Shown here: positions 791 to 53,000 of the stretch, in pieces
Layout of the letters: each line of letters begins with the position of its first letter
Position numbering within the stretch: position 1 is the first letter of the stretch
Assembly (NCBI GenBank): GCA_008632985.1
Contig: QPGO01000010.1
Span: 496,001 to 560,000, forward strand
Direction of reading: 5' to 3'
DNA length: 64,000 bases
Origin: Psammoneis japonica
Taxonomy: Eukaryota
The notes under the pieces: model-generated
Databases searched by the model: none
Seen by the model: only the letters and a program-made list of their open reading frames with translations
Told to the model about the DNA's origin: nothing
Program-made: the position numbers and the translations under genes

Positions 791-949
791 CACTGAGTGT
801 GTGTGTTGAACCAACAAGACAATGTTGCCAAAAGGGAACCCTTTGAGGTTTCCTGTGCCACTCGTCACACTTGTCCTGGTTGCTCCTGTGGTCTGCGGCA
901 GCCATGGTTTGCCTGGAAGTCCTTGACAAACTTCAATCTTGCAGTGCAA

Positions 950-2430
950 AAGCTGCCTGCTGACACCACAGTGCAATTTGTGCAAACCAGATGATTCACT
1001 CCAAAGAGTGAGAAAAAAAAGGTTGGTGAGATTGGCGATGAATGCACACTCGCTGGTCCGGTGTTGCCAAATCCACCATGTCAGGATCCAAAGCATCTTC
1101 TCTTCAACATTTCCACTTCTGGGTTTTTTGCATTTCCTGCTCATTCTAGATGCTCCAACAACACACTCCTTCCACTTGGGTCAATGTTCAGAACACTTGT
1201 TCATGACACACAGGGGAAGGCCCCTCAGGCATCCACACACAGTGGGTCTGCTGGCCCAATCTTCTTGAAAGTTGCTGTTGCGATTCACATTGGAACATTG
1301 CCAGTTGGCATGTCACTCTTCATTGGCAAAATCCAACATCTCATTGAGTGCATCCATTGTGCCTTGTGTGCACTCCATGAACTTGCCAATGCAGGCACAG
1401 CAATTCTGCTCCACCAAGTTCATCATGTGAGGACCAACCAACCACCAGCTCATGATCTCCAACCATTGACCACTTCAGGATCTGACACAAAGAACCCCAT
1501 GCTGTGACAAGCCCACTTGTCCGGGGTCTTGCCTTGTTGATGTTGCAATCAACAACAGTGCTGGCTTCAGCATGCAGAAGTCAAGTCCATTCTTGTCTCA
1601 CACCTTTCGCAATGGACCTTGCCACACTCATCATCTCTCAGACTGTGCATCATGAGCGGGCCACAAACCCCCTCATCATCCATGCCATGTGCAGGACAGC
1701 TGATCATTGGCATGTCCGTCAGTGCTGCAAGAACATCTTGTCTGTCCAGTGTGAGTTGAAGATTCCCATTCCTGGATCTGGCAATTTGTTGGTCCTTCAA
1801 ATTTCTCTCGGGCCTCCCATGTGCCATTGTCAATTTCAGCAACATGTCTTGCCCTGCAACTCAGCATCAAAGCCAATCATTTGCCAGTGCTCGCTGTTCT
1901 TGTGCACATTCATTCTGTGCAGCTCAGCATCTTCTGTCACCATGCTCCCATCAGCATGTGTGGAGAACATCAGTGCTGTGGCAGTGGACACACACTTTGG
2001 CTGACTCAGTGTCCAATTTTTCACAGTGTCATCATGCAACTTTTTCATGGTGCTTTGTCCTGGCTTCTGCAATTCTGTCCATGTTGGTTCAAGTGTCTCA
2101 ATCTCCACATGTTCCACATTGGGGCCAATCATGTCATTCCTTTCATCTGAGTTGATCATCAATTGGCGCAAATTCACAGTGTCCTGTTGCAAGTGTGTGT
2201 CGACAGTCAGCAATGTCCTGTTGCTCATGAGCCATTGCATGAGTTCTTCTCTTGCATGTGGAAACTGCACTCCTGTCATCACCTTCCTGCTCTGTTGTGG
2301 GATGATGTCCAGCCCACTCATCACCTCGGTCACATGTTGTTCCAGCATGGAATGGTCCAAACTGTTGAACCATGTCTCACAATCACTTGGCCATTTCAAT
2401 GTGATCAGCTCAAATGTTGCCCATTTGCAA
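950..2430 (-). pseudogene. Decayed protein-coding sequence of unknown family
   Basis: Chained minus-strand frames (ORFs 1836-2399 and 1567-1845, plus a frame through ~1500-1000) read as natural protein if C/H are reverted to Y and TGA to CGA, e.g. LVEQNCCACIGKFMECTQG, RPTVCGCLRGLPLCVMNKCSEH. Confidence 0.45.
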
Positions 2431-2562
2431 TGACAATGTTCTCATCTACATTCATTGCTTGTTGACACAACCAACATGATGTGCACTGCTCTCAAGGCTC
2501 CTGTCCTTGCATCACATTCACACTGAGCATTGAAACTTTCATGGATCTTTCACCCACATGCA

Positions 2563-5500
2563 TCAGAACTCTCGTGCTTTTGTTTGACAGCCCACAGTGG
2601 CATGTTTAAACTTTTGGAACTTCTTGCCCTGTGATGGCTTTGTCATGAAGTCTCCCAGCATGTTGTTGATGGGACAATGCTGTGCTTGTAAGTTGCTCTT
2701 CTTGATCTGATTGTCAACAAGAAGTGTCAAACATTGAGTGCTCGTGACTGCTTGCCAGCACTCTTGTGTGCCCATCAGTTTCCAGCATGATGGCACTCTT
2801 GCTGTCCTGGTGCAAGACATTGTTGTCAATTGGATGCCCTTGGTGCTCCATGAACAGCTTCATCCACAGTGTCATGGTCATGGCATCATTGACTCCAACA
2901 AGCTCAGCTTCTGTGCTGCTGCGGGTGTTGAGCTTCCTGGTGCTTTGAGATGGCCTTCACTGCTCCTTTGCCAGCTGTCACAACTCCTCCTGTGTGGCTC
3001 TTGAAATCTGGATGTGCTGCAAAAAACAATGCACCCACATGCCACTTGATGACTTGGAGGTCCATCACACCTCACACTTGATGCAGCAGCAGTGACTTTG
3101 TTTCTTGTCTGGTGGCTCACATGCTTGAGACAATGGACCAGCTTCTCCCAATCCTTGTTGGTGGGAGCTCTGGCTTGCATGCATGATGTGGCAGATGTGT
3201 GTCCATTTGGCCTCTCTTGGACAGGAGCAGTCCCTTGGCCACCCATGTGCGGAAGGTCTGAGCCTTCATGTCTGACAATCTTGTGCTGTCGGAGTCAGAT
3301 GTCTGCTCTCTGTCTGCTGGTGTCACAGCAAAATCCACACTCGTCAACTTTTCCAGAATTTTGATTGATCATCTTGCAAGCACAGTCTGCCATGTTGACT
3401 TTCACTTTGCCCTTCTGGCTGAAGTCCTGGGTCACACCAAGACAGTCATGTCTCTTCCCCTGCACAGCAATGACTTCACCATGGCTGCCATGCTGCATCT
3501 TGTTTAGCCAGCTCAGGAACTTGTCATTTGCTTTTAGGTCATTGTGGCTCAACAACCAGTCATCCACATGGAACCAAATCATGCGCTGCTTGCGGTTGAC
3601 TGTTTGACTGGCATTGCATGGATTGCATGGGTTGAACTTAAAGCCTGTCTTTTTCAAGTCTTTCCAAATTGATTGTGCTGCAGCAGAGCAGCGGTCAGCA
3701 TGCCGGAGATGGCTCTGATGAGTCAGATGCAGAGGACTCTCTTGCCTTTCTCTGGGACCACACCATGAGGTCCGCATGGGGTTGGATTGATGCTCACTGG
3801 CATGTCCACCAGCACTCCTGCAATCTTCATCACAATCCTGTCTTTGCCTTCTCCAGGCTCTGGCATCATTGTCTGCACAAATGCACACGGAACATCGGTG
3901 CTCATTTCATTGCAGCTTTCATGGGCATCAACAATCACCATCATCAATGTCCCCTCAAGGGATGAAGTGGGGCTGGCTGACTCATCTTTGTCTGGTCATT
4001 TTTGGGTTGGGTTGTCATTGCAGACCATTCACCCTTTTGTGCAGCCATCTCATTTTTTGGTGAGGAACATCAAGGCTGCCATGGGCTTGGTCCTTTCAGC
4101 CAGAGTCATGTTCTTGGCTGATGCTGGTGCAAAGCACACTTGGTCATGCAACTTCTGCTTGATTTCTTTCTCTGAGGCATTGCGCCCCTTCTGGCCAAAT
4201 GCTTTGAGGCCTTTGTGGAGCAAATGTTGTTGGGCAAAACATGCACCCTCTCCACTTTGGAGTCGGTCATCAATCTCACATGAAGTGTGCAAGCAACATT
4301 GCTGTCTCCACTTTGTGCACAATGTTGCCCTTTGGTGCTTGAGCTTGTGTTGCTCCCTTGCCACTTTTCTGGCTTCTGCCACTCCTGCAAATCAAACTTT
4401 GTTCTTGTCTTTGTGTCCATGTGACTTCACCTTGAATGGTGCTTCACTTCTTGTGACTCTGCTTGGCGCAGCTCTTGTTTCTTCCTCCAATCATTTGCAA
4501 CCCCCATCTTGTGTCTTCCTGGGGTTCTTCATCTTGTTTGGACTCTTCACTCTCACAGTGTTCATCATCATCTGGGTCTTCTTCTACCTTGTGCTCTTCT
4601 TGAGCTTTGTGCTGTTGATTGGGGCTGGACCTTTCATTGGCTGACACATCATCAGCTTCTTCATGTTCATCATCTGAGTCAGGTGTGTGTCTTTGCAGTC
4701 TTCAACTTCTGACTTGGTTGGTGGTGCAGTTTTATCATCATTTTTGCTTCCTTTGCTTTCATCATCCCTGTTGCTGTCGCTTTTATTTTTGTCATTGTTT
4801 GCTCCTGCAGTCCAATCAGCATCACGCAAATTGTCTCTGTGCTTTCCTGTGAACTTGAATTCCTTGATGCCTTGTTGGATGGCCACATCCCTGACAGCTG
4901 TGACATGTGTGTTGGTCAAGGATGTGGAGGTGCACACTTGCAGGGATTCAACAGCTTGCCCATGTGCAGGTTCATGGCACAGTGTCCACCCCTGGGCAAA
5001 TTAAAATGTGGTCACAGGCAAATGCTGTCAATGCTGCACACTTCCATGGGGTTTGTCTTGTTGTTTGTGATGTGGGAAATGACAAGTTTCCCAAACTTGA
5101 GCTGGACATGTTTGTTGCAGCCAAGGTTTCTTTGTTGCACAGCAGTGTGCTGTGGACTGCAAGTGTCAGAGTGAAATCCTTTCTTTTTGCAGGTGCACAT
5201 TCAACATGACAGGAGTGTTCTTGATCATGGCTTGCTTGCACATCAACTCAGGTGTCATCTTGTGTGGCATGTGATGTGCAGTGGCTCTGGTTTGCTCCTT
5301 GATGGTCTGAGTGCTTTGCTCATTTTTGGGAAGATGGTCCTTGGCATTCGTGGATGCAAGTTCTAGATTCATGCCATCAGCAACTTCTGCCAGCATGTCT
5401 TTGAACTCAGGATCACACCCAATGAAGTCAATCTTAAATGAGGCCATGTTGCGCTGTCAGAGAATCATGTCCAAGGCTTTGCAAATGTGTTTGTGCTTCT

Positions 5501-7350
5501 TGGACTTTCACCTCACACTTGATTGATGCTTGATTCTTGTCTTGTCAACTGCACGGGCATCTTGACACTGCATGCTTCCACAATGTCAATGCAGAGGGCA
5601 GAGGGCTGCACCTTCTTTCTGCTTGTTGTAGATTTCAGGTGGAGCTGCAACAGTGATGTTCCTCTTGCAGGAATGGTGTGCATGCTTGGTCTTGTCTTTC
5701 AGTGTGTTCATGTCACCACATCCTGGCACAGTGCAGTCTCCATCCAAAGTGTCCACTCCTGCATTGGTGGACAGAGATCAATCTTGTTCCTTGCCAGTTC
5801 TTGCACTTTGTGCACCAGTTTCTGGCTTGCTGTCATGATGCTGAGGGCAGAACCATCATCAAGGATGATCTCATCTGACTTGATGCCAACATTGGCTGGG
5901 ATCAACCTCATCTCTGGCCTGTCTTTGGCCTGTTCAACTGCTTGGAACCCATGCCACAAAATGTTTCTCTTGCTCTTGCTGGAGTGTGATGACTGACTTG
6001 ACCTGTGGGTGTCTGTGCCAGCATTGATGCTGCTCACTGACAAAGTCTGACAGTCTTCTTTTCTCATCTGTGCATGACTCTGTCCCCTGGTGTCAAGTTT
6101 CCTCCCTGCTGGTGTTCTTGCACCAGTCTTTCTGTGGGATCTCATCCTCACATTTGCAGTGTGAGGACTTGTGGTTTGCTCACCACAGCAATGGCACACC
6201 ACAGCACCATGTTTGCCACTCTGGGCATGCTGACTTTGGTCTTGCAGGTTCTTGGACTTGTCATTGGTCTCATCTCCATTCTTGTCTCTGGGACAACCAT
6301 CATGCTTCTTGCTGCATTGCTTGCATGGATTGATGTCTCCCTTGGGTGGTTCAGCAACACATCCAGCATTGCCTTCTTGAGAGTCTTTGGGTGTGAGTCA
6401 CTTCCTGGGTTGCAATCTCTCATGAGGCTCCTCTCTTGAGGTTCTTGTGGAAATGGTCATCACTGTTTTCCACTGACATGCATGCAGTCCATGTCTTGCA
6501 TGCAGCATCTTTCAGCGCCTGCTGCACTGCTTTTGTTTCTGCCACTGTGCCAGTGCAGTCCTTGCACTCCTTGGCATTCTTGACAAAACCATCCAGCATC
6601 CCACTGTGGAGAACATTGCTTGCAGCATCTCATTGATTCTTAAATCTTGACAGGCAGTCATTCAGAGTGACTGGTTCTTTGTTGTTGCACATCCAGCACA
6701 TGCTTCAGAGACTTGGCAAGTGCACGGAATGGGTGTCAACCTCTCATGGAGTCAAATGTCAGTGACTGGATCAGCTTCAACAGCTCAATCAGGTCATCTC
6801 TGATTTTCTCACAACTGGGTTCAGCTGGCACTCTCTGATTCACAAGCTTGGCAAAGCAATCATCCAGGATCACTGAAAATGCAGCAGTCTTGTTTTCCTC
6901 AAGCTTCCTCACTTTCTCATTGCAGCAGTGAAATGCAGCCTTGTGCTGATGTTCCAGCTCTTTTTCTTCTTGTGATCTTTTGTCTGCCATCTCCTGGTGG
7001 TCTGAGGCATCTGCCTTTGGCATTGCCATCTTTGGTGAGCCCAGAGTGAGTTTCACATCATCAGATCTCTTGTGCTTCATGATGTCCGTTGACCTTGCCT
7101 CAGGTGAACACCCTGCTTGACCACATTTCTTTTGCACGTGGTTGATGACATTCATCTTGACATCCTTGCATGTTGCATTCCATGAGTCAATGTTCATCAA
7201 TGATGGACAAAACTTCATCTCTGGCTTCTTAAACCTCTTCTTTGGGCCAGTCTTCTTGTTCTTGTTGTAGGAAAACTTTTGGCCTCTGCCACCTCTGCCT
7301 TGGTCATGTCCTCAGCCTTCACCACTCATCCCACCTCCTCCTCTGCCACT
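2563..7350 (-). mobile_element. Ty1/Copia LTR retrotransposon internal region (gag-PR-IN-RT-RNaseH), degenerate; no LTR pair recognised
   Basis: Minus-strand order: gag (ORF 6736-7218), zinc knuckle CHCCG (~6190), protease IILDDGS (~5860), integrase CDPEF...PKNEQSTQTIKE (~5300-5420), RT STDVPCAFVQT, FNPCNPC, WFHVDD, KRHDCLG, RNase H end HCPINNMLGDFMTKPSQGKKF. Integrase upstream of RT is the Copia order. Many stops and frameshifts. Confidence 0.9.
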
Positions 7351-7439
7351 CACAATGCAGCTTTCCTGTGTCAGATGATCAAATGGAGGTTGGCACCACA
7401 TGCACCAAACACAGTGCTTCTGACTCATTTATGCACTCT

Positions 7440-7520
7440 GGGAGAAGGGCAGCTTCAACACCTGTTCAATGCACACCCCATGGGACAGATGGTTTCAAAC
7501 TCATCAAATGCACACCCCAG
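7440..7520 (+). repeat. Minisatellite cluster 2 (same TTCAACACC core)
   Basis: ggcagcttcaacacct (~7449) and gatggtttcaaactc (~7488), each followed by a TGCACACCCC-like tail. Confidence 0.55.
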
Positions 7521-9100
7521 CATCTGCAGCATGTTTTGCTCTTGATGAGAAGATCAGTTGACAAGAAAAAAATTTGCACCTGTGGCTGCATTCTCCACAC
7601 AAGCATTGCAATTTTTCAAGAATTGACCAACAAGGTGGTCATGGCAACTGCAACTCTGAACAATGTTTTGATGCTGCTTCATTTTGAGTCACAAATCTGG
7701 AGTTGCCAAAGCCATCATTTAGGCTGACACAGTCAATTTTTCCAACAACAGTGGTCACAGGTTTGCAGTGTTTTTGTCATTTGTGGTGCAGTGATGCCTC
7801 ATTCAGAGCTGACCCATTTGTTTGGGAGAGCTTCAATTTGATTGCCCACTGCATGTTGCATGTTTTTCAGTGCTCCTGCCATGTTTGTCTCTTTGTTGCA
7901 TCCTGCACTGCACAACTCAGCCACCAATCTGGTGTTGTTTGCATGACACCAATGGCACACCCCTTTTGCGACCCAATGTGTCCCCTCATCACATGTTTGA
8001 CAACAATGAGAAAAGGCTCTCCTTTCAATGTGAATGTCTCATTGAACCAACCCCCTGTTCACAGACAATGCCATTACAAGCTTGAGTCCTTTCCTTCTGC
8101 CCAATGTCAATTTGCACTCCAGAGCCCAACTCACAATGTCAACCAATCACTGCAATGTTTGTGCCATCATTTGATCCTGGTCATCATGCTCATGCTTCCT
8201 GTTGCCACAATGCTCATCAACCAGAATTTGACTTTGTTTCACACCATCACAATTTGACAAATTCCAACATCAACCCAGATTGCAGTGTGGATCAATCTGC
8301 ACTTCATTCAGCACCACTTTGTGAAGCTGTTGACAGACAACAAACAATGCTGCAAAACCTTTTTGGGGTGCCAAGTCATCAGGGCCAACATGGCTGCAAT
8401 TTGATTTTGTGGATTGTTGTGGTCTGTGTTTTGCACACTGTTTTAGCTGCTGTGGCAGTTCATTTCTGCTGGCCAGCACCAAATCATGTTCTCTGTCTGT
8501 GCATGTCTTCCTTCTTTCTCTGTGAATGCAGCAGTTCTCATCTCTTGAAGAAGATTGCACAGGGTCATTTGGATGCCTTGTTGGAGAGAAAGATGAGCAT
8601 TCTCCGTGCACCCAACTCCAGGACCCAGACTGCATGGGTGGCAGTTGCAAGCACCAAGGCTTTGGTGACAGAAAACTCATTTGACATGTTGAGACTTTGT
8701 GCATGGGTCTTCATCATCAACCAGATTGGCCACAAAGACTTCTCACTTGCTGACTCCTCACAGCAGGAAAGCTTGACAAGGCTGCAAGCCTCCACAAAAT
8801 GTGCATGGCATGCAACCAATGAAGCTCAGGGCCAACCCCACATTTCTGACTCACATCCCAACCAATCCTCTTGCTAGATCCATTCTTGCTTGAACTTGAG
8901 ATCAGGATGAAATGGCTTGCCCATGCATCACAGTTCTTCATCACTTCCAACAAAGAGAAACATGTTTAAAAAATGCTGCCACAAACTTCTCCATTCTCCT
9001 CAAGATGTTTTGCAGTCTCTGGCATTCCCCATGCATTTCTTTTGGAAGTTTTGTGCACCTGCTGCCACTCAGCAATCAAACCTTTGAACTGGTCACTCTG
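7500..9100 (-). pseudogene. Decayed protein-coding sequence of unknown family
   Basis: One minus-strand frame over 8280-7500 (IWVDVGICQIVMV*NKVKFWLMS...TGGWFNETFTLKGEPFLIVVKHVMRG...) is interrupted almost only by TGA, as expected from CGA->TGA decay. Confidence 0.4.
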
Positions 9101-9119
9101 GCGGAGTTTAGAAATTCGA

Positions 9120-10460
9120 GTCTGGCTTGCTGCTGTTGTTGGGGACAAGGCAAGATGGGGCCACAGTGCCACAAGATCAACCTTGCAATGCTCAACCACA
9201 GTTCTTAAAGTCTCTCTCCTGGGGCCCACCAGATGCTGCCAGCACCCTCATCCTGCAGTTGTCAGGTTTGGTGGCACTGTCATGGTGGGGTCCTTTCACT
9301 CCAGAGTTCTCAGGAAAGTCAAGTCTCTGTTGCTGCAGGGAGAAAGGTCACATGGGGCCACAACACCACAAGATCAACCTTGCAATGCTCAACCACACTT
9401 CTTGGAGTCTCACCCAGGGCCCACCAGACACCACCAGTGTCCTCAACTTGCTGTTGTCAGGTTTGTCAGCACTCCCCCTGCCATGGGGTCTTTTCACTCT
9501 GGAGCTGTGAAAGTGTCACATCTGCTGCTGTGGGGGAAATGTGACATGTGGCCACAAAACCACAAGATGATCAACCTTTCAATGCCCAACCCAACTTCAG
9601 CTTGCTGTTTTCAGGTTTGTTGGTGCCATCATGGGGTCCTTTCACTCTAGAGTTTGAAAACTCAAGTCTGCTGCTGTTGGGAACAAGGTGACATGGGGCC
9701 ACAATGCCACCAGATCAAACCCCAGCAATGCTCAGCCACAGTTCTTGGTCACATCTTGGGTCTGCCAGACACCACCAATGCCCTCAGCTTGCTGTTGAAA
9801 TTGGGTCACAACTCCACAAGATCAACCTTGCAATGCTCAACCACAGCTCTCAAAGTGTCACCTGGGGTCTGCCAGAGACCACAAACACTCTCAGCTTGCA
9901 GTTGTCAGGTTGGTTTGCACCATCATGGATCCTTTCACTCTGGAGTTGGGAAGTTCAAGTTTGCTTCTGTTGCAAACAAGTTGACATGGGGCCACAAGAA
10001 CGCCACAAGATCAACCCTGTCAACAACCAACAAGAGTTCTCAAAATGTCACCTGGGGGGTCTGCCAGATGCTGCCATTGTCCTCAACTTGCAACTGTTGG
10101 GTTGGTTGGTGCCACCATGTGACCCTTTCACTGTAGAGTTGGGAAGTTCAAGCACACAAAACAGGCCTTGCACTGCTCAACCATGGTTGCTGCAGAGTCA
10201 CCTGGGGTTCACAAGAGACCAGAAGTTTGATGTGTGCTTCTGGCAGATGGGACACAACAGGGTGCCACAAATGCTCAACACTGGTCTCACACACTTGCTC
10301 AGTTCAAACCACTGTTCTCAAAGTGTTGCCTGGGGTCTGCCAGAGACCACACCAGTGCCCTCAGCCTGCTGTTGCTTGTTGGGTTGGTTGGTGCCATTGT
10401 GGGGCCTCTTCACTCTGAAGTTGGTGGGAAGCTCAAGCCAGCACCAACTTGCTGGAGACA
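9120..10460 (+). repeat. Degenerate tandem repeat, ~8 units of 100-195 bp
   Basis: Anchor CACAAGATCAACCTTGCAATGCTCAACCAC-like at ~9171, 9368, 9562, 9711, 9816, 10005, 10155 (weaker ~10300), usually followed by CCTGGGG...CCAGA and CCTTTCACTC. Confidence 0.85.
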
Positions 10461-12199
10461 AGGTGACACAAGGGAGTCACACAACAGCCATGACCACATT
10501 GGCACACAGGCAACTGCTTGTTGAGCAGGAGAAGCATTGGCAGGAATTGACACAGCTGCAGTGCTCCATGTCTGTGGGGGCTGCTGCTCTGGCCCTTTGC
10601 TGGCTGGTGCACATTTGGCATGGTGGTGGCTGTGCTGACCCAGTCAAACTCTTGCTTGACCAGCTCCCTGTCTGTGACCACCTGCATGACCAACTCCACA
10701 AACCTTGTCTTGACCCAATGCCTGCAAGGGACAAAAGTTGTTGTGCATGTGCAGATCAGCAGCAAAGATCAGCTGTGCAGCAGCAAACTGCATGGTCTGA
10801 CACAAATGTGTGAAAATTTCATTCTTGACAAGGGCTGATTGAGGTTACAAAAATTGAGACATCAATCTTCTTTGAAAACAAATGTGCAGCGCATCTGGTT
10901 GAAACAATGTCTCAACATCTGACTGCCAAACAAATGAGAGCTCACAAGCAAAACACATCAGCAATGAAGACCAATGTAAAATGACTCATGCAAAAGTTGA
11001 TTCAACCAATTTAAAACTTCAAAAACAAGTGCAACAAAAGGATTTCTAAAAAAATGAGACTGCATGCAAAATGATGCAGGCAATGAGATTGCCAGGCACC
11101 AGCTGGCTTGGCTTGTGGCAAAAAGAGGCGCATCGCTGCCACACAAAACAACAAAAAAAGCACAGGATGCACCCAAGCATCCCACAAACAATGACAACAT
11201 TGCAAGAGGGCACCAACAAAGCCCATGACTCTGGACACACCAACACAAAGAAAGGCCATGGGGAAGGCAAGAGATTGGAAGTGCAGCACGGGAGCAGGCA
11301 GCTTGCAGCAAACAAAACAAACTGATGCTTCCCCTTGCACTTTTTTTGTTTCTTGAAACTCAGACAAGTTGACAAAAATGGCCAAGGACAAGAAGCAAAG
11401 TGCTGCAATGTCACACACAGGTGGGCAGAAACAACAGCATTGTGCCATGCTTGACAAAGAAAATGCACCAAACTGACAACTTCTTTGCTGTCTTCTGCCA
11501 GGGATTGCTCCAATGTGTCTCACAATGAAAAGCCGTCACAAAAACTGACTCTCTTTGAAGCACCGACAAATGAAACATGATGTGTTGCCAGTGCAGCCAA
11601 GAACACCAACAAGATGTGAGACAGACTGTTGTGAGAGGAGACAGTGGGGGAGACAGACAATGGGGCGGCAGCTTGAAGCACAAAAGGAGCAAAGGCAGCA
11701 GAATGAAGGGTGGAACAAGAGCATGCACCAAACATCAATCATTGCCAGGGTGGAAAGAAAATGATGTCATGGTTTGCTGGAAACCAAAACTGCAAAGTGC
11801 GCAGCACCAATTGACAAATGAATGAATCAAATTGTTGGTGTGTTCCAGCCGTCAATGAACAACAACACAATTGATGAGATTGACTTGGGTGCATGTGCAC
11901 AGAAATGAACCATGCATGTTTCATTCATTGTCATTTTCCACTCCACTGGCTTGGCCAACAATCAACACTCCAACACCCACAGTCGTTGCACTGTGGTTGA
12001 CTTTAAAATGAATCTTGTCAAAAGCCCAGCATGCACTGTTTGGAGACCACCAAATTTCCTTTAGCCTGGTTTCCCACTTTGCTGATTTGGTCAATTGTCA
12101 AATCAATTTGTTTGTGATCAGCTTGGTCAGAACACAGGCTTCTTGTCAAGCAAGCTTTAACCGCAAACAAGAGCAATCACATTTTCCAGATGAGGGGAT

Positions 12200-13090
12200 G
12201 GTGACAAGCCTGGCAGTGCCACTGAGTTGCTGCCCATCCTTTTTCCACTGGAGCATCTCCAAAGTGAGGAGCTTGAGTCTCCAATGACAGCAAATGAATT
12301 GGAGGTCATTTGCCAAGGGGGAATGAGCACAGAACAGTCAGTCATTTGAGGAGTTGCACATGTTTGGCAATGCTTGGGTGACTCCAGCCACACCAAGATC
12401 ACTGAGGCCAGAAGAGAGCACCCCTGAAAGGGTCTTTAAACCCTGAACAACATGCACAGAACAAACATCAGAGGAGCAGCAATCTTGAGGGTGCTCAGGC
12501 AGCTGTGCCAAGACTGAGGCCAAACAGAAAGCACTGAGCTGGTCGGATGGTTGTAACACCCATTGAACCTGCATCCCGGGGGGAGGGGGTTGGACAGTTT
12601 CAACACCTGCCAAACATTCATCCCAGGGGTTGGATGGTTTCAACACCTCCTGTCAAACGTGCACACGGTTTCAACACCTGTGAAACTTGCATCCTGGGGG
12701 ATGGACATTTTTACACCTGTTAAACTTGCATCCCAGGGGAGGGTGACAAGCCTGACAGTGCCATTGAACTGTCCATGCTTCTTCTGCCAGAGTGTCTCCA
12801 ACAAGGAGCTGGAGACTCCAATGGCAGTGAATGGGTTGGAAGCTGTTCGCCGAGGGCAATGGGCACAAACCAATCATCTGAGGAGCCGCATGTGCTTGAA
12901 AATGCTTGAGCACTTCTTGCAATGCCAAGACTGAGGCCAAACAGAGAACAACTTTAAATCCCGAACAATGAGCACAGAACAATCAGTGCTGTAGAGGAGT
13001 CGCATGCTTGAAAATGCTTGAGTGGCAATGCCAAGACTGAGGTCAAACAGAGAGCACCAAAATCGGACTATAAATCCCGAGCAATAGACT
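12200..13090 (+). repeat. Local duplication plus ~110 bp repeats
   Basis: GTGACAAGCCTG... block at ~12201 and ~12743; CCAAGA...CTGAGG-type units at ~12393, 12507, 12924, 13030. Confidence 0.75.
12541..12745 (+). repeat. Minisatellite cluster 3 (GGATGGTTTCAACACC core)
   Basis: Five core copies near 12545, 12592, 12632, 12664, 12703; same orientation as cluster 1. Confidence 0.75.
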
Positions 13091-18385: not shown

Positions 18386-18527
18386 ACGATGGAATTGGCA
18401 TGCTCTAGAAAAGCCTTTACTCTGCCGTTCAGTGGACTGGTAGTCCACTGGCACACTGATGATGCTCCTACCACCTCTTCCTATCTTTTGATGTCACTCG
18501 CGCATCTGCTTTAAGTGCTCGAGCTCA

Positions 18528-18823: not shown

Positions 18824-18855
<32 letters not shown>

Positions 18856-24942: not shown

Positions 24943-25217
24943 NNNNNNNNNNNNNNNNNNNNNNNNNNNNNNNNNNNNNNNNNNNNNNNNNNNNNNNNNN
25001 NNNNNNNNNNNNNNNNNNNNNNNNNNNNNNNNNNNNNNNNNNNNNNNNNNNNNNNNNNNNNNNNNNNNNNNNNNNNNNNNNNNNNNNNNNNNNNNNNNNN
25101 NNNNNNNNNNNNNNNNNNNNNNNNNNNNNNNNNNNNNNNNNNNNNNNNNNNNNNNNNNNNNNNNNNNNNNNNNNNNNNNNNNNNNNNNNNNNNNNNNNNN
25201 NNNNNNNNNNNNNNNNN
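24943..25217. other. Assembly gap preceded by poly-C
   Basis: Run of N. Confidence 1.
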
Positions 25218-26690
25218 CCCTTTGTGACATTTAAAGGCTGCAACACGTCGCCGTGATGCATCAACTCTCATTGGCAACTGTGTGTTGCACTCCTCCCCAT
25301 GTGTCGCGCGTCCATGCGGCTCTTTGCTGACGTGCGCTGACACTGCACGGTTTTGGCGGAACAGTGTGGGTGCACACGAAGGAACATGCAGAACTGCACA
25401 GAGTTTTTTCCGCATTCGACAGTGATCAACGTTGCTGCAGACAACTCCCACTCAGGGTTTCGAACCCCTGGCCTCCTGCCTGATGGTTGCGATGAACCAC
25501 TCCGCTGTGAATTCACAACGCAGCATGCATGCAGACAAAAGGTCATTTTTGTCACACCCTTTGTGACATTTAAAGGCTGCAACACGTTGCCGTGATGCAC
25601 TGGCTCTTGTCAGCAACTGCACATTGCACCAGCCCTCCTCTCTCTGCCCATCTCTTGCTGCTTCTCCAGCACCCAGCTTGCCTCTGCTTGTGCCATTGCC
25701 GCTCAGCACAAGCTCTGCCTTCCGCCCTGCCGCTTTCCTTTCTTGCCTTGTTGGCGCGCCCCTTGCTCCTGTGGCCACGCCTCCCTTGAAGCCTGCAACA
25801 ACAACACCTTTCCTTGCCAGCATGGCCGCAGATCAAAGCTGTCCAGCAGCTTTTCTTGTGGTGCCATCTTGATCTAATCTCTCAGATCCTGTGCTCTCTT
25901 GCCAAACTTTGTCGCTTGCCCAAGACAATGCTCACCTCAAGCATGTGAGCCTCGCCCCTTTCTGCTCACTCTTTCATTCCACCAAAGCTGGCATGATCTC
26001 CTCGCCCCTTTCAGCACCCCTTTCCACCCCCTTCATCATTGCTGCACCGCTGCTGATGTCGCTGTTCTCAAAGCTCCCTTGCTCTCCTCCCAGTCTTCCT
26101 CTCCTGTTTCAAGTGAGGTGTGCCACTCGAGCGCGAGGCCGAAGTTCCTTGGACCTTCCAACCCTTTGACAGACGGCTCCCTTGCTGTTGAGTCTCTCAA
26201 CAGTGATGGGATCTTTGTTCTCTCCTTTGCAGTTGATCACCTCAGAGGTCTTGGACTCTTCTGTTGTCAGCTCCTTTTCAGCTCTTTGCTCTCATCTGCT
26301 CCTTGTTCCCACCCCAAGACCCCTTGGACATTTCCTTCTTCTCGTCACAACTCCAATGCTTCCTGCTCAGCTTTTCTCCATGCCCCCTTGCTTTCCCTTT
26401 GGCTCCTGTCCTTCTTTCTGCTGACTTTGTTTGGAGTCGCCTCTCCAATGAGTGCTGTGGTCATGTGCACCCCTCTTCTTCCCTGCCCCAGTGGGCCATC
26501 CAAACCCTTGGCAGCAACGTCACCCATCGTTTTTCTTCCCATGCTCTGTGATGTTTCTCTTCCCTCCACACTGAATCCTCTCTGCCCCATTCCCTCACCA
26601 AGCACCCTGCACGCTTCGTCATGCATGTCCCTTCCACTCCTCTGCCTCAACAACAACTGCACATCAAAAGTTGTTGGTTCATGAGGCGCA
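25218..26690. mobile_element. TpA-depleted repeat domain 2 (unclassified element; 43 bp direct repeat with 339 bp period; strong pyrimidine skew on + strand)
   Basis: 25218-25260 matches 25557-25599 except one CG->TG change; TpA nearly absent while CpG is common. Confidence 0.55.
25446..25512 (-). pseudogene. tRNA-derived sequence (SINE head or tRNA pseudogene)
   Basis: Minus strand TTCACAGCGGAGTGGTTCATCGC...CAGGGGTTCGAAACCCTGAGTGGGA: A-box-like CAGCGGAGTGG (25507-25497) and B-box GGTTCGAAACC (25466-25456) within a T-arm-like hairpin; anticodon arm not intact. Confidence 0.5.
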
Positions 26691-27122
26691 TGCATTGTAA
26701 ATTGGACAATAAACTAGTTTGACCTTTCTAAACTCAGAGTGCAGAGAAAGGAATGGCGCAACAATCTCACCACAGCAGTGAAGGTATGAGCTACGAGTTC
26801 AAAATAATGTTGCCTTTTCAACGTATTGTCTCAGGCTACTAAAGCCTAAGATAGACCTCTCTCTAGAGCATTGCTTCTCAACACACAAGACATAACCCTT
26901 TCCACCATGCATGCATCATAGGAACGTATAAACTAATGTTACGATAAGACCTATGAAACCCACACTCTAGCGTCAACGCTACCTCGCCGTAGAGGTGTTA
27001 CCCTGTGTCCGCCTCTGTTGTGTTTTCAATCGATGCCCAAAGTCAATGCATGCAGCACAAGTAAGTGTCTCGGTTCGTAAGAAGCTCTTTTGCCTGAGAC
27101 ACACACGCATACCTATCTTTCT

Positions 27123-28346: not shown

Positions 28347-29036
28347 GGTTGTTGCTTTCAGCTTGCTGTTTTTGCTGTGGTGTGTGGGGAGAGGAGACTG
28401 GAGAAAAAGGAGGGGGCGGCGCAGACAAAAAGGAGTTGAAAGCTTTTTGCGCGAGCAATTCACACACACACGAACACCCAAACAAAGAACCAGAGCAAAG
28501 AGGGGCCTTGCGATTGCTGCATGCCGCATGTAACATGCTCAAGAACCAAAAACTTGAGTGCATGTTATCAGAAATGTTGTTAGCAGGCTACTGTAGTCGA
28601 ACCTCTGTACAGTCGTTGTTGTTGCTTCGCATGAAATCATGCTGTTAAGCAATCACACGGCAGCCTCGCGAAATCACCGGAATCACACGAAATCACGCAC
28701 TCGCGCTGACACTCGCCTCGAAATCAAACTCCCCTCGGTTCGTGTACGAGTGTGGGAGAGACGATTCCGTTGAGCGGCGAGTGCAGATTACGCGAGGAAT
28801 CAAACAGCAACAGTGCAGGAGTTGTTTTTGTCAAGGGAATTCGTTGAGCACAAGTGTTGTTGCTGTTGTTGATTGTTGATTGTGGGCGTTTTTTTTGCAT
28901 GCCAATGACTGGCGCTCGCAACGGTCTGACATTTGTTTTTGAAGAATCGGTTCTTCACACATTTGTTGCTCTCACACTGAACATTGTGATTGTTGATTTT
29001 GCTCCACAACAGATTTGACAGTGCTGTTTGTGAAAG

Positions 29037-31466
29037 ATGAATTTTGAAGAAGAAAGTGGCTTTCATCTGCCTGATCATTCTTCAAGCAGCTCGTCTGAAG
29101 AAGAAGAAGAAGACAAACAAGATGCCCCGCCACTGATGCAAAACACGGAAATGGCAGTCAAATCTCTTGTGGGCTTGCACAACACATCAACATCCAATTC
29201 TGTTGCTCCACCTCAAGCTGGCTGCTTTGGCTGCAACGACAATGCTGATGGATGCCACGAATGTCAGGGGAGCAACGGGTCGTTTTCATGTGCCAATGCC
29301 AATGCACCAGCGGCACATGCAGCGGCACCAACAACAGCTGTGGCACCCACTGCTGCACCTGCTTTGGAGTGCAATGATGAGCAAATGTCGAGAGAACTTG
29401 CTGAAAGCCTTCACTGCGGGACGTGTTCTGGCTCAGATCTCACTGCGCAAGAAATGCCAAACATCAAGAAGGCTTCCAGTGTTTCAGCTTGGCATTTGAA
29501 TGCAAGAGATGAGTTGGAGGTGCACTTTTTTGCAACAATGGAAGAGTCAGGCAGTGAGAGGCTGCAGCATCTTCTTGAGGAAATTGAGTCGGAAGAGTCC
29601 GTTGAGACTGTGCGGGTTTTCTACAAGACACTTGCGGGAGAGAAGATGCAACACAAGCATGAGATTTTGAATTTCTGTCTTGTTCTCATTGTCCATTGCT
29701 GGCACAATGTAAAGACTGGTGAAATGCATGAGCCATCCATGTTCACCCAGTGCGCGAAGCAACTTTTTCAAACCTTTGCGAGACACGGCATTCAGCACAA
29801 GTGTGATGACAAGGAATTCAAACAGAACGGCGGCTGGTGCTCCATTTTGGAAGATGAATGGAAGAAGCAGCAAGAGGAGGACAGGTCTTTTGGCATTGGC
29901 AAGAACAAGTCACACGTCGACATCAGGGCAGATCAGAAGACAGCGGCAAAAATCTGTGAAGGCAAGTTTCGACCCATGGAAGACTGCGAAGACATGACAC
30001 CTGCTTTGATTTTTGTGCTGGGGCGCCATTTTGGGTTGCGTGGCAATGAGGAGATTGCCCATCTCACATGGGACAATGTGACAATGGGCAAGTGTGAATC
30101 TGGACCGGATGTCAGGAAGTTGCAAGTCAGGGTGCAACTTGATGAGGACAAAGTCAACAAACTGAGGATCAAGAGTCCCATGCTCCAAAAGCAGCTCCTC
30201 GATGGAATGCATGTTCGTGAAATGCCCATGAATCCCGTGTGTCTGCTCAAGCTCATTGCTGTGTGTCAGACTTGGTGTCCTCCGGATCAAGAGAGATTTT
30301 TGCACCAAGAGGTGATGAACAAGCAAAAGCAGCAGCACAAGCTGGATGGTCTGGCCTGTCTTGCAAGGCCTGGAAAGACTGCGGGTGTCATTGGCGTCAA
30401 TGTTGTTTTGGACAAAATGAAGTGCATTGCTCAGCTGCATGGTTTTGACAACTGGGAGCAAGCGACAAGCCACAGCAACCGTGCATTGATGACCACTTTG
30501 TTGGCATCTGCTGACTTGCACCCAAAAGAGATGCAAACTCGTGTGAGGCACAACTGGTCAGAGAGCCAGTTGCTGCATGTTCGTCAAAGTGATCTGCTTG
30601 ACCATCAAGTGCAGAACGCGCTGGCTGGGAATCAGGGCGCGTCGGTTCAGAGCTTGTTGGTTCAGGACGCATCGGTTCAGAATGCATCTGTTCAGAATGT
30701 GTCCGCTCAGAATGTGTCGGTTCAGGATGTGTCAGCTGCAGCCACCTTTGCGGGTGGAGCTTCTGTTCCAGCATCATCTGTGGCAACCTCAGAGTCCAAC
30801 AAGACTGCATCATTGAGCGATCATTCCGCGCCATCCTCGGAATTGGGGAGTTTGCACACAGAGAAAATGGAGCCAGAGTCTGCTGTTCAGATGCTGGAAT
30901 CTCAAGTTGCTGATCTAGAATCTGCCAATGCTGTGCTGAAGTTGAAAAACAATGACCTTTCTGAATCAACATCTTTGGTGGAAAAGGAAAATGCTGAGCT
31001 CCGGGAACTGGTCAACAAAATGAACATGAAAGATTCGATCATTTCTTTGGAGGATCGCGTTGGTCACTGCAATGACTCCATTGAGAAAATGAAGAGCTCT
31101 GTTGAGACAATGGACCAGAAGTGTTGTGACACCCAGAAAGAGACAGTGCAGCTGCAGTCGAATCATGCAACTTTGGAGTTGAAGCTTGAGACTGTGCAAG
31201 GAACAATTCAAAACCCATGTCTGACCATCAGCAACCAAGATCATCAAGAGATCCGCCATCTCAAGGACACCATGGCACAAGCAGATGTGAAATGTCAAAC
31301 CCTCAAAGACAAGGTTGCTCAATCTAAGCTCCAAGAAAAACAACTCTTGGGTGAGTTCATTTTTTGGAGGAGCGAATTCAAGACTTCAGGGGCGAGAAGA
31401 GGAGAGCCGCGGCGGGTGTGGGATGATGTGGGACAATGTTCTTTTGGACAAAATGGGGAAGGATGA
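29037..31466 (+). pseudogene. Tyrosine recombinase (Crypton/DUF3504-like) with C-terminal coiled coil; open frame but predicted catalytic Tyr reads His
   Basis: GEMHEPS (cf. Crypton G..YEP), FGLRG.EE (R at 30039), HSNR (30471-30482), RH.....SQLLH (CAT at 30576-30578 where Tyr is expected). Only one Tyr in 809 aa. Confidence 0.75.
30639..30728 (+). repeat. 15 bp coding tandem repeat x6 (ASVQN-like)
   Basis: gcgtcggttcagagc / ttgttggttcaggac / gcatcggttcagaat / gcatctgttcagaat / gtgtccgctcagaat / gtgtcggttcaggat. Confidence 0.9.
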
Positions 31467-32842
31467 TGTGACAGTGTCACCAGTGTGTTGGCATTGCCAG
31501 CATTTTAGTGTTGCCAGTGTTTTAACTTGCTGGACGGCAAACAATGCCACGATCCAAAAAGTGAGCTGTGGTGTGTTTCGAACATTGTCTTCCACACTGT
31601 TTGATGTTTGAATTTTGTCATTCACAGGTGTGTCTCGCATGTGTGATGCAATTCACCCTTTTGTGTAATTCTGAAAATGCCAGGCAATGACAATGTCGTT
31701 TGCAATCTTCAGGACCTCATGAATCTGAACACATGATGTGCTGACCAAGCATCTGGCCGTGGGGAGTTTGGGGTGGGGAGGAGGGGTCGGGAAAATTCGA
31801 GAACCTGATGGATTGCCCGACGTAAGTCCTGCGTGTTTTTCACATTGGCGAACTTCAACCGTGGTGATTTCTGGAATCACCGCGCTTGCCGTGTTGTGAT
31901 TCTGGAGTCGGTCACGGCTCCGGTCACCGCGCCAATTGCTCGCTGATTCTCACGACACGGCAAGTGTGTCATGGCCAAGACTCCAAGCCCAGCAAGGAGA
32001 GAACCCTCATCCTTGGCTGGACCGAGAGTCACCACGCAAAAGCAGGAGTGAACGGGTGAAGGAAGGATGACGGATGAATGACAGACAGATGATGGACAAG
32101 ACGAGCGAGCAAAACTGGCCCTGACCCTCATTGTCTGGCAGGTTGGGAGACACCACGGAACTGTCGGGGCGTCTCCAAGGAGATGCCAACGATGAAAATT
32201 GAAAACCCTCCACTCCCAATCCCGTCAGCACACAGCGAAAAGGGAGCCAATTGCTTGGCACCAGCGATTCCAAGCCTGGCCCCACATCCCAATTGCTTCA
32301 CCTGCTGGCGACCATTTTCATCGTGCCAACATCATGAGTCTACATCCGGCTGTGAACATTGCGGATGTGCTGGACCATCTCCACGAGTTGCATCGATGGA
32401 CTGGAGTCGCTTGCACTGTGCCATGTCATCGGAGTGCTGACAGCCGAGGCGGCGGCAGGGAATCCGTGGGATTCTCGCGTGACTGGTTTTTCGGTCATTG
32501 TTCGTGCACCAGTGAAATAATGTACTGTGATTTCACGTGGCTTCTACGTAACGAAAAGTCATAATGACCCTTTTGATCGTACATTCTACATGATTCCCGT
32601 ACAAAACCAATGACTGCACAGTTGCTGTTTGATTCCTTAACAAAATGACTTTGCAGTGAGACGGACAGACGACTATTCGTTACTGTAGGGCGGGCAGGCG
32701 GGGGCGCGCGCCAGCGAGGCGAAAAGCGAGCGTGCTCCAGTGCGCGCCAGCGGTCATACGTAGGATTAATACTGCATTCTACGTGGAAGGCACAACATAC
32801 CGTTTTCCAGTTTTTCTGCACATCAGGCATCAGGAGGCGACC

Positions 32843-49908: not shown

Positions 49909-50029
49909 CGTCGTGGGCCCAACCGTCTGTCGCATTCTGAGTTCGCAGGCTCGCAGGTCGCAGGCTCGCTGTCGCACAGAGCTGCTCACATTTTCGAGTG
50001 GAGAACGCCGCGCACCTCCTGGTTGATCG

Positions 50030-53000
50030 CTCTCCAGCAGGGCCAGGAGAGGTGGGAGTGACTGAGCTGTGTTGCAACCGGCAGCTTCCACATCTTGTTC
50101 TTGCTTGTTGGTCAATCTCTCCCTTGAGCAAGAGATCTGACTTCTTGATGAAGCCCTCAACTGAGGTGGAATGATCCCACCGCACACAATGTGCTCAACA
50201 TGTGTGGGCAGCTCTGCCTGCCTCTGAGTGGGCAATCATGGGGGTCTCCTTGATGCTGGCACTCAGTGACGGCAGCGCACATGAGCTTTGCACATCTGAC
50301 CAAAGCAAGCCCATGCCACTGGTGGCTGCATTTCAATTTGTCCAGCTTGGAAATTGTTGCCACGTGCATCTGAGAGCTGGGGGGTCAGAGATTGGCCACA
50401 TTTCCAGGATGTTGGTGGCAGAGGTCAGAGCAGCAACTTCAATGCTTTGCATTTGAGTGTGCAATGATGAGTTGCAATGACATGCTGAGCATTGAGCCTT
50501 GGCTGTGGTGATGACTCTTGAAGCTCCCACTTCTGTTGTTGTTGGAGAGCTTGGCATGTTGTGCTCTTGCCTCTTTTTGCTTTGTGCACCTGCAGCTGGT
50601 GCTGTGTTGCACTCTGCACCTTGGTTTCTGCTCCTTGACTCTGTCTCTTGCTTGCCAAACATCATGTCATTGAAAAGCATGAGCAGCCATGTGCAGATCC
50701 TCCTGTCCTTGTTGGATGTGCTCCATGTGGCTGTTGGAGCATCATCCAGCAGAGTGAGTGGGCAATGCAAGAAACCTGGAAGTGGGTCCATTGAGAAGAT
50801 GCTTCACATCCTGACCTGTTAAATCTGGTGAAACCTGACAAGTGAGTGTGCAATCATCACTGATCTTGCCAACCTTTTTTGTTTTGGTCATTTTGGAGCA
50901 AATCATCTGGTTCATGCAAACTGCATTGTGGCGTCAGCAGGCACCTTCGCACACAATGAGATCAAAGTTTGTTGTGAGAGCTTCCAGGCAAACCACAGCT
51001 GCCATGGCAACCAGGACAAGTGCAACAAGCAGCACAGGAAACCTTGGACAAGGACTCCTTTTTGGTGACATTGGCTTGTTGGCTCAACAGCAGCTGCGCA
51101 TGAGAAGGGCCAAGCACGTTGCAAACCAACAATCTGGGACACCAACAAGGTGCAATGACAAAAGGAGGTGTGCAACTTGGCTTGTGCTGCTGCAAATGTT
51201 TGTGAAGAGAGTTTTCTGTGCCTGCAGCATGCACTTGCACAAAAGCTGTGTGTTTCAGTGCCTGTGCTTCTTGCAAGAAATGTGGGAGTGACAAAGGAGG
51301 GAAAAAGAAGAAGAAGAAGACTGCTTTGGACCAGTCAATCCAGAAGATCTTGCTGCTGCAAATGACAACGAGAGCAACACTGATGTTGCAAAACAAAACC
51401 CTCCAACACAAACTGTGGAGCTGCAAAATCACAAGAACACAGCAACAAAAACTGAAAAGGAAATGTGGCAGGCTGTGGAAGAAGAGTGGGGCAAGAAGGA
51501 CACATTGCTGCAGAGCCCAAGTCCAAGGCAAAAAGAGAAGGTTGGCTCCTCAATCTTGCACATCTCATCCTCTCACTCCCCCCTGGAGCTTGGGCACAAT
51601 TGTTTTGTTCTGGTGCCAAAAATGTTGCTGAGTCATGTGTCTGTGGAATTTTCCCAGCATGTCAAAAAAACAGATGACAAATCACAGGGACATCAAGCAC
51701 AAAAGAAGGCTCCTGCATCACAGTGTGTTGCAGTGAGCTGCACCTGCTGGTGCAGCAGCACTGTCCTTTTTGGAAAGCTGCCGCCCCTGCAACAGCAAGA
51801 CATGCAGAGTTTGAGCCCTGCATGGCACAGCCTCTTCATGCATGAAATGTCAACCTCAGTGACTCTTGGTTGCTTGCAGCAAGAGGAGTTGTGCTGCAGA
51901 GTGCCAAGTTTGACTGTCCTTGTGCGCTGCTGCTGGGACTCAAACTCTGCATGTCCAGACCCATCTGTCATTGGAGCAGCAGTTTTTTTTTTCACAAAAG
52001 ACTGTCACAATTTCCAATCAATCAGATTTGTCACATCACAAGTGTGCCACTCTTTTGCTGCTTTGCTGTGTGGGGCAGTGCAAGGTGTGGCAGGCAGCAT
52101 GAGATGATTGTGCTTGCACCACACAGTGTTTTCAGTGCACACTCTCCTCTCCACCAAAACTGCACTGGATCACAAGCTGCAAAGGCCACCGCCAAGCTTG
52201 TCAAAGATTTGATGATGCCGAATGTGGACAAAAATGAGAATTGAGCAGAGAGCTCTTGCGGTGTCTGCTTCAGTCTGTGTGTTTTGGTTTTTTGTGCTTG
52301 TGTTGGCACGATCTCATGTGGGTGCCCAAAGGAAGTGCCAGATGACTGTAGACATCTGTCTTCTGTCTTTTGAGAGCTGTTTCTTTGAGACCACACAAGA
52401 CAGTTTTGTCAAATGACAAGAATCACATTGTTCTCATGTCATGTTCACCAAGACAACAAGACACAGCTGTTCAGCAAAGCACCCAATTTGGTGGTGAGTT
52501 TTTGAGTCAGTTGATCTGACCACATTTCAATGAAGCCAACGGCCAGACTGAAACCCTTCAAAAGCCACATTGTGTGTGTTGGGGCACACATGCGTTGGTC
52601 AATTTTTGAGAACATTCCCAGAAAGTTGGTTTGCCAAACATCAGTGCTTTGCATTTGAGTGTGCACCATGGTGAGCTGCAATGACATGCTGGTTTTTCTT
52701 GGACCTCAGCTGTTGTTGTTTAAGTTGGGTGGCAAACACCCCCCATTTGCTTTGGCTGTTTCTGCCGCACCACTCTGTCTTGATTTTTCTGCACTTTGAC
52801 TCTGCATCTTGCTTGCCAAACACCACATTGTTGAAAAGCAGCATGAGTGACAACAACACGCACAAGTTCTGTCATTGTTGAATGCTCCTGACATTTCTTG
52901 GGTTGTGGCTGGTGCATGCAAGGATCAACATCTGTGCGAATGTGCTTGCTGGTGGATGTCATGGCCAATGGCCAGCACTCAGATGATTGTCAGGCTTGCC

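Follow-up and report, generated by a model that had tools for sequence, protein, structure and literature searches.

In ascomycete fungi, repeat-induced point mutation (RIP) deaminates C, mainly converting CpA to TpA, which raises the TpA/ApT ratio and creates stop codons. The ADAR and APOBEC enzymes of animals have RNA or single-stranded replication intermediates as substrates, and their signature is asymmetric between strands. Methylation of transposable elements (TEs) occurs in diatoms. RID-related DNMT4 genes are reported to be widespread in this group, and RIP is mentioned only as a fungal process in passages of the article describing them (PMC9998398). A mutation bias directed at TpA has been reported in Bigelowiella natans, where, according to the main text of a preprint, 230 of 231 new mutations found in two viral inserts by mutation accumulation were A-to-G or T-to-C changes, every one of them at TpA (Mettrop et al., bioRxiv 10.64898/2026.01.13.699255). 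The same text describes 124 clusters of the B. natans genome that are poor in TpA and rich in CpA+TpG, gives a TpA observed/expected ratio (o/e) of 0.45 for the viral region and suggests an ADAT2-like deaminase as the enzyme; the words "CpG", "diatom", "flanking" and "context" are not found in it. Our full-text literature search for TpA-directed hypermutation returned this 2026 preprint as the single report, and nothing for diatoms. Here we analyse 64,000 nucleotides of the diatom Psammoneis japonica (assembly GCA_008632985.1, contig QPGO01000010.1, positions 496,001 to 560,000 of the forward strand; hereafter the window), in which a short stretch at 25218-26690 and a neighbouring Crypton-like transposable element have lost nearly all TpA and only part of their CpG. 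The two losses are separable, whichever of speed or target differs between them.

Results

Unequal loss of TpA and CpG

A 250-bp profile combined with 1-kb dinucleotide statistics over the window identified four nearly TpA-free domains, at 501-13000, 25218-26690, about 28790-32517 and 50001-63750, all embedded in gene DNA. Expected dinucleotide counts were derived from base composition, and normalised survival was defined as o/e divided by that of the gene background of the window (30,151 bases; o/e TA 0.58, CG 1.00, TG 1.17, CA 1.14). Between 25218 and 26690, 3 TA were observed for 72.4 expected (o/e 0.04, 95% confidence interval (CI) 0.01-0.12), and 45 CG for 97.9 expected (o/e 0.46, CI 0.34-0.61); TG and CA reached o/e 1.74 and 1.60. 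The preliminary description of this stretch had drawn attention to its left part, 25218-25800, as rich in CpG with TpA restricted to two TTTAAA. The CpG-rich strings are indeed present (gtcgcgcgtcc at 25303, acgtgcgc at 25330, ggcgcgcc at 25753), the only two TpA (28.0 expected) lie in TTTAAA at 25232 and 25571, and 27 CG remain for 43.1 expected (o/e 0.63). Over the whole of 25218-26690 the normalised depletion of CpG does not equal that of TpA: survival is 0.07 for TA versus 0.46 for CG, and equal survival is rejected (conditional binomial p=5.8e-5).

The Crypton-like domain behaves in the same way (28751-32500: o/e TA 0.04, CG 0.57), and the two large outer domains have lost both steps (Table 1), as had been claimed. 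The TpA floor is therefore equal in all four domains (o/e 0.04-0.05), whereas CpG spreads from 0.10 to 0.57. TG and CA rise to o/e 1.6-2.0 in these domains, whose edges are sharp, and the deficit of TA+CG relative to background is matched by the excess of TG+CA (ratios 0.94-1.04). TG and CA have similar values in each domain, so both strands are affected. The TpA/ApT ratio is 0.00-0.18 in 1-kb bins lying wholly within depleted domains, versus 0.4-0.9 in gene bins. In the 250-bp profile, the window contains no domain that is depleted in CpG yet retains TpA.

Copies decay independently

Copies of the same repeat frequently disagree. In three TE alignments from within the window, pyrimidine-purine columns at which one copy has TG and another CA numbered 46/231, 30/212 and 21/75. 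The purine-pyrimidine analogue (AC versus GT) gave 2/228, 4/213 and 1/70 in the same alignments, and three DUF6824 gene paralogues of similar divergence, used as a control, gave 3/144 TG-versus-CA columns. We also aligned to the window the contigs of two public runs (X1 and X2) of a single sample, possibly the very data from which the assembly was built. Relative to the window, variant contigs of the Crypton-like element show paired TG/CA swaps at no fewer than five places, and carry TA (28784, 29803) or CG (29697, 30110) opposite TG or CA in the window; this check covered 21 of the 40 listed rows, with 238 further rows beyond these. Given the discordances between copies and the TA and CG retained by siblings, the changes must have arisen in place, after copying.

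A dead Crypton-like element with an open frame

The third domain covers a multi-copy element with an open reading frame (ORF) of 810 codons (Table 1), a length that none of 200 shuffles reached (maximum 351). The frame contains no in-frame TGA, versus 24 and 39 in the other two frames. A word-index protein search with the 810-aa ORF gave no match, and an exhaustive HMMER search recovered 202 relatives. Family comparisons were made with the best 150 of these, 14 of which were scanned against Pfam and 21 longer ones aligned with the ORF. DUF3504 was matched by 8 of the 14 scanned relatives (2 above the curated cut-off), and one more weakly matched Phage_integrase; the window ORF itself reaches only E=0.016 against DUF3504. 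We take DUF3504 to be linked to Cryptons, and the label "Crypton-like" of the preliminary description is thus a reasonable one.

The aligned relatives share H..R and R...Y motifs, with H, R, R and Y kept. The window ORF keeps H480, R483 and R505 of this catalytic set and has His in place of Y515; this Tyr, invariant in 21/21 relatives, is encoded by CAT. Judged by these residues, the window copy is a dead copy. At the 13 majority-Tyr columns of the 21 relatives, the ORF has His (CAT/CAC) 5 times, Cys (TGT/TGC) 4 times, Tyr once and another residue 3 times. The Tyr changes are divided nearly evenly between the strands (5 to His, 4 to Cys). Arg is kept at 4 of 8 majority-Arg columns (3 CGN, 1 AGG), the others being His (CAC), Gln (CAA), Ala (GCG) and Val (GTG); among the 5 presumably CGN positions, 3 are intact. 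Compared with window genes, the ORF has 0.12% Tyr instead of 2.0%, about 1.8-1.9 times as much His and Gln, and half as much Arg. Read against the aligned relatives, the codon changes of the ORF are precisely those expected from TA turning into CA/TG and CG into CA/TG.

The dead gene would remain open because, by the genetic code, a TA-directed change of A:T to G:C cannot create a stop codon. Stop codons exposed to TpA hypermutation are themselves altered, TAA and TAG giving CAA, CAG, TGG or TGA, and dead transposon genes remain open. ORFs such as that at 29034-31463, nearly devoid of Tyr and rich in His and Cys, evade word-based and Pfam searches. In a Pfam scan of 150 of the 151 ORFs of at least 90 aa in the depleted domains (all but ORF 500-793 on the + strand), DUF3504 at E=0.016 was the only match above sub-threshold noise. 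A Copia-like RNase H motif suspected in 1501-7000 on the - strand was unsupported, read-through frames in this region giving nothing.

The sharpest local dissociation within one element was observed in the tail of the Crypton-like element (31751-32500), where CG stands at o/e 0.80 versus 0.06 for TA (2 observed for 36 expected). Beyond it, 8 TpA remain in the last 120 bases of the repeated unit (32518-32637), a segment that takes in the right arm of the inverted repeat, so that the TpA-free domain does not reach the repeat boundary defined by contigs (about 32637).

TpA-free relatives in metagenomes

Among the best 150 of the 202 relatives, three (P0064, P0103 and P0109) are without any Tyr, the median being 3.4%. 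P0064 led to 12 metagenome loci (L001-L012), among them TpA-free domains flanked by normal DNA in microbial-mat assemblies. L001 and L002 have o/e TA 0.03 and CG 0.41-0.43; in L002 the TpA-free state stops after about 3 kb, with a normal flank beyond. L008-L010 show o/e TA 0.09 and CG 0.67. Normal relatives are found in L003/L004 (TA 0.51, CG 0.67) and L005-L007 (TA 0.47, CG 0.95).

L003 and L001 form a pair independent of the window; they are 84.6% identical in DNA and can be compared site by site. None of the 34 TA of L003 is kept in L001 (TG 9, CA 16, other 9), versus 15 of its 36 CG (the remainder TG 6, CA 9, other 6). This difference in retention is significant (Fisher p=1e-5), and reverse changes are few (TA 2, CG 2). 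From this alignment, TpA loss in L001 is complete and CpG loss about half done. Judging by these loci, the TpA process is also present in other organisms.

The preliminary description had held that TpA conversion is faster than CpG decay, or precedes it, and had proposed a comparison of TpA, CpG and divergence for each TE copy. This comparison was approximated with the in-window paralogues and the 12 metagenome loci; it bears out the order with TpA first (0/34 TA versus 15/36 CG in L001). The claim of tempo itself stands in part: the processes are distinct, and CpG loss is only partial where TpA loss has run to completion, but a difference in tempo is not shown inside 25218-26690.

Fate of CpG

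Copies of the Crypton-like element that are at least 90% alike exist, the frame is intact and about half of the CpG is kept. Nearly all CpG is gone from domains whose paralogues are only 72-83% identical. It had been suggested that some of the surviving CpG could be regenerated by repeated transitions. This receives no support from the ORF, whose aligned part contains 10 CGN Arg codons: 7 fall on columns where Arg is the plurality and none on His, Gln, Cys or Trp columns. Between L003 and L001, changes of TG/CA to CG occurred 2 times versus 15 of CG to TG/CA. Regeneration would thus appear to be at most minor.

A satellite edge and a single-copy flank

One correction concerns the CpG-rich left part of the stretch, 25218-25629, which is no decaying TE copy but the edge of a high-copy tandem satellite with a 339-bp unit (Table 1). 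Word depth summed over contigs, which is not a copy number, reaches 79,166 in bin 25204-25504 and 50,874 in bin 25505-25805, versus about 57 at single-copy neighbours. One contig joint leads back by 333 positions, from 25570 to 25238, and the sequence beyond a loose end at 25629 follows the start of the monomer. Together with the 73-bp direct repeat, depth and joint identify 25218-25629 as about 1.2 units of the satellite. The two copies of the direct repeat (25218-25290 and 25557-25629) show 13 differences, all transitions and several of them TG/CA swaps, and are 100% identical in purine/pyrimidine coding.

The satellite part holds 2 TA for 22.9 expected and 21 CG for 28.3 (o/e 0.74). Opposite TG or CA of the reference monomer, sibling satellite contigs show TA at three positions (25326, 25329, 25375) and CG at 25373-4; at 25335 the siblings have TG and the reference keeps CG. 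Since siblings keep TA and CG, the edge monomer of the window is more decayed than much of the array. Interior copies seem to hold TA at several positions lost in the edge copy. CpG retention in the satellite could reflect array homogenisation or an absence of methylation, and not youth.

The remainder of the stretch, 25630-26697, has a depth of 34-53 and shows 0 differences from a 989-nt contig covering 25573-26561. The right-hand boundary is abrupt: 0 TA occur in the 822 bases of 25876-26697 and 29 within the next 425 bases. The flank contains a 268-aa ORF (25878-26681), a length reached by 4/200 dinucleotide shuffles. We found no Pfam match for the flank and no relative elsewhere in the window, including by purine/pyrimidine-coded self-search. 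An apparent internal 90-nt repeat proved to be merely pyrimidine-rich low complexity. No Rfam match was obtained over 24400-27000 at E up to 1. The tRNA-like look of 25440-25480, an impression only, was dropped, ARAGORN having found no tRNA and Rfam no match.

In 24000-28500, about 1% of sites distinguish single-copy gene contigs of run X1 from the window. The contrast with 0 differences over 25573-26561 points to a different haplotype or strain in the case of the genes. A C22 homopolymer (24921-24942) lies immediately left of the assembly gap.

Flanks of surviving TpA

The few TpA that survive are not a random sample with respect to their flanks (R, purine; Y, pyrimidine). RTAY contexts (ATAT, GTAC, ATAC/GTAT) account for 0/87 survivors in the four domains versus 345/1205 in the background (p=1e-12), and YTAR contexts for 53/87 versus 204/1205; TTAA is enriched 8-fold among window survivors. 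Only 22% of the TG and CA steps of depleted domains have YTAR flanks, which fails to account for the bias of survivors. In the metagenome loci the near-absence of RTAY was found again (1/25 versus 217/742, p=0.003). That only two TTTAAA are left in the satellite is explained by YTAR, above all TTAA, being refractory.

Other features of the window

The genes of the window are unbroken and encode an aldehyde dehydrogenase, a methionine aminopeptidase, a mitochondrial carrier and two DUF6824 paralogues. Among named proteins, the closest to the aldehyde dehydrogenase all belong to diatoms (Ditylum, with 72% identity, Odontella, Seminavis, Nitzschia, Thalassiosira and others). Its identity with the protein of Triparma, presumably a non-diatom sister lineage, is 65%. 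Three tandem paralogues, about 73-75% identical, occupy 16164-23700; the first two were scanned and both carry DUF6824. With 68 TpA per 500 bases, the intergenic segment 18501-19000 is unusually rich in this step; it includes (TC)13 and (TCTA)9 microsatellites. Within the last domain, the sub-block 54001-54750 has 20 CpG in 750 bases and 2 TpA, neighbouring 250-bp bins having mostly 0-3 CpG; it may be a younger nested insertion.

Table 1. Coordinates of the repeats and related features in the P. japonica window (TA and CG values are o/e unless given as observed / expected)
Feature	Position	Strand	Remarks
Old repeat domain, both TpA and CpG lost	501..13000		o/e TA 0.05, CG 0.10
Assembly gap, 275 N	24943..25217		cuts the TpA-free domain on the left
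Satellite monomer, 339 bp, very high-copy tandem	25218..25556	+	TA 1 (o/e 0.05; in TTTAAA at 25232), CG 19 (o/e 0.80)
Second satellite monomer, first 73 bp	25557..25629	+	direct repeat of 25218-25290; TpA in TTTAAA at 25571
TpA-free flank, single-copy depth, pyrimidine-rich on + strand	25630..26697		TA 1 / 48.8 (o/e 0.02), CG 24 / 68.4 (o/e 0.35)
TpA-free domain over multi-copy Crypton-like element	28790..32517	+	contig depth 80-670; variant contigs with paired TG/CA swaps
Left arm of 46-bp inverted repeat (85%) flanking the Crypton-like element	28795..28840	+	partner 32593-32637, TpA still present
Open frame, 810 codons, putative tyrosine-recombinase (DUF3504 / Crypton-type) protein	29034..31463	+	inactivated by Tyr to His/Cys; catalytic Tyr = His (CAT), residue 515
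Old repeat domain, both TpA and CpG lost	50001..63750		o/e TA 0.04, CG 0.13; internal paralogues 72-83% identical, many TG-versus-CA discordances

Discussion

Two superimposed processes

The comparisons show the direction of change (TA and CG to TG or CA), its action on both strands, the differing completion of the two losses and the dependence on flanks. We consider it probable that two processes are superimposed in repeat or foreign DNA, a fast and saturating TpA hypermutation and a slower decay of CpG. The former would be a TpA-directed A:T to G:C change on both strands, turning TA into TG or CA quickly and to saturation, with RTAY erased wholly and YTAR, chiefly TTAA, refractory. It would make no stops, leaving frames open while Tyr became His or Cys. 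The latter would convert CpG to TpG or CpA at a slower pace, its likeliest cause being spontaneous deamination of 5-methylcytosine in silenced repeats. In 25218-26690 and in the Crypton-like element, the TpA step would be finished and the CpG step about half done; the domains 501-13000 and 50001-63750 would be older, with both steps finished. By analogy, the enzyme could be an ADAT/TadA-type polynucleotide adenosine deaminase with DNA as its substrate, as proposed for Bigelowiella; oxidation of thymine to a base mispairing with G would be expected to give equal products. Methylation presumably drives the loss of CpG, and the target DNA would be recognised as repeat or foreign.

Several points weigh against this interpretation. 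Runs X1 and X2 do not provide evidence independent of the assembly. For 25218-26690, TA and CG were assumed to have started at the level of the window gene background, and the single-copy flank of this stretch has no known relative. Mass balance is poor in the satellite part (ratio 1.9), where array homogenisation could decouple CpG content from age. The codon contrast in the ORF is weak when taken alone, with 9/10 Tyr lost versus 2/5 Arg (Fisher p=0.077), and the enrichment of YTAR was not replicated in the metagenome loci (6/25 versus 133/742, p=0.43), whereas the near-absence of RTAY was. Within 25218-26690 itself, what is established is separability and not tempo; the evidence for tempo comes from the neighbouring element and the relatives.

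The two losses could instead differ in their targets and not in their speeds. The TpA process would then cover all repeat-like DNA and CpG methylation or decay only some of it, so that 25218-26690 and the Crypton-like element would be unmethylated or patchily methylated rather than young. CpG retention is indeed uneven within one element, the tail of the Crypton-like element standing at o/e 0.80 and its core at 0.45 with TpA equally gone, and patchy methylation therefore fits this element at least as well as a simple clock; this too counts against the reading in terms of speed. The o/e of 0.80 in the satellite monomer agrees with a difference in targets, as do the TpA that persist over the final 120 bases of the repeated element, by which domain edges and element edges do not quite coincide. 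We nevertheless regard this explanation as unlikely. Loss of CpG is under way in TpA-free copies, as seen from Arg to His or Gln at 2 conserved CGN positions, from the 15/36 CG that became TG or CA in L001 and from sibling copies of the Crypton-like element that have CG opposite a reference TG. Moreover, the CpG-poor domains are those with the most diverged paralogues (72-83%), whereas the Crypton-like element has some copies at least 90% alike.

Alternatively, both losses could be due to one enzyme, a dual adenine/cytosine DNA deaminase acting at pyrimidine-purine steps with a preference for TpA over CpG, the rate constant being the only difference. Both losses are confined to the same domains with the same end products, the window has no domain that lost CpG and kept TpA, and amphioxus ADAT2 is reported to edit A and C in DNA, as cited in the main text of bioRxiv 10.64898/2026.01.13.699255. 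In the same text, however, 230/231 Bigelowiella hypermutations are at A:T, all at TpA, and none is reported at CpG. The geometry would also differ, the edited base being 3' in TpA but 5' in CpG, and the decay of CpG in methylated repeats is established as requiring no special enzyme. We find a single enzyme very improbable. Bare composition could still be accounted for by elements that are natively TpA-poor, through selection or through codon or dinucleotide bias of a donor, or by an assembly or base-calling artefact, the more so as the runs may be the assembly's own data. We give hardly any credence to this: the catalytic Tyr and 8 other conserved Tyr are swapped for the codons predicted by TA to CA/TG, copies disagree as TG versus CA at the same columns while siblings keep TA, and environmental contigs from other projects also split into TpA-free and normal copies.

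Implications

That a much more complete TpA erasure occurs in a diatom, and also in environmental contigs unrelated to it, hints at a genome defence that is widespread in marine protists but has gone unrecognised. TpA erasure that is saturated while CpG is still half present would provide an internal order of events for repeat silencing, and, if an adenine-editing defence exists, the order of silencing events could be read from hypermutated domains. For annotation, long open frames that lack Tyr and any protein-family match may serve to flag TE remnants. Action on both strands and a flank preference for RTAY over YTAR constrain the enzyme. As a tentative proposal, diatoms, and perhaps the whole stramenopile-alveolate-rhizarian assemblage, might possess a DNA-level adenine-editing defence, an "A-type RIP", which would recognise repeat or foreign DNA, hit RTAY-type TpA on both strands within a short time and kill genes through Tyr to His/Cys changes without stops, before and independently of cytosine methylation.

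Comparison with known systems

Like fungal RIP, the process is a hypermutation by transitions at the DNA level, confined to domains; repeats are inactivated by it, and a dinucleotide scar remains. RIP, however, targets C, raises TpA/ApT and makes stop codons, whereas A:T pairs are targeted here, TpA/ApT is brought down to the values given above and stops cannot be made. As for dependence on duplication, 25630-26697 is at single-copy depth at a likeness of at least 90%, a threshold that would miss any more diverged copies. Decay of CpG by deamination of 5-methylcytosine is matched by the change of CpG to TpG or CpA, seen in each of the four domains and finished in the two oldest ones, but it cannot remove TpA and here lags behind TpA loss.

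With ADAR and APOBEC the process has in common a deamination directed against mobile or foreign sequences and clustered transitions. It differs in affecting both strands equally and in having a DNA transposon and a satellite among its targets. ADAR-like hyper-editing of RNA followed by retro-copying was considered and does not fit the parity of TG and CA, the balance of the Tyr changes (5 to His, 4 to Cys) or the nature of the targets, which include a tyrosine-recombinase element and a satellite. The element itself is allied to Cryptons through its 202 relatives, their DUF3504 matches and the conserved H..R and R...Y motifs; it departs from them in the His at the catalytic Tyr and in the weak DUF3504 score of the window copy.

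The likeness to Bigelowiella is in the conversion of TpA to TpG or CpA on either strand, in the depletion of TpA and enrichment of CpA+TpG in discrete domains of foreign or unannotatable DNA, and in that single-copy DNA can be affected in both. A foreign or mobile origin of the targets is seen here for the Crypton-like element and for the repeat families of 501-13000 and 50001-63750; 25218-25629 is a satellite and 25630-26697 is without recognisable origin. Bigelowiella is a chlorarachniophyte (rhizarian) whose viral inserts are hit, and its mutations were observed in real time; P. japonica is a stramenopile in which transposon remnants and a satellite edge are hit, and its mutations are known from sequence comparison alone. 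The main text of the Bigelowiella preprint gives an o/e of 0.45, versus a near-total erasure at 0.04 here. What is new relative to Bigelowiella is thus the diatom host, the transposon remnants and satellite edge as targets, the more complete erasure, the comparison with CpG and the flank rule.

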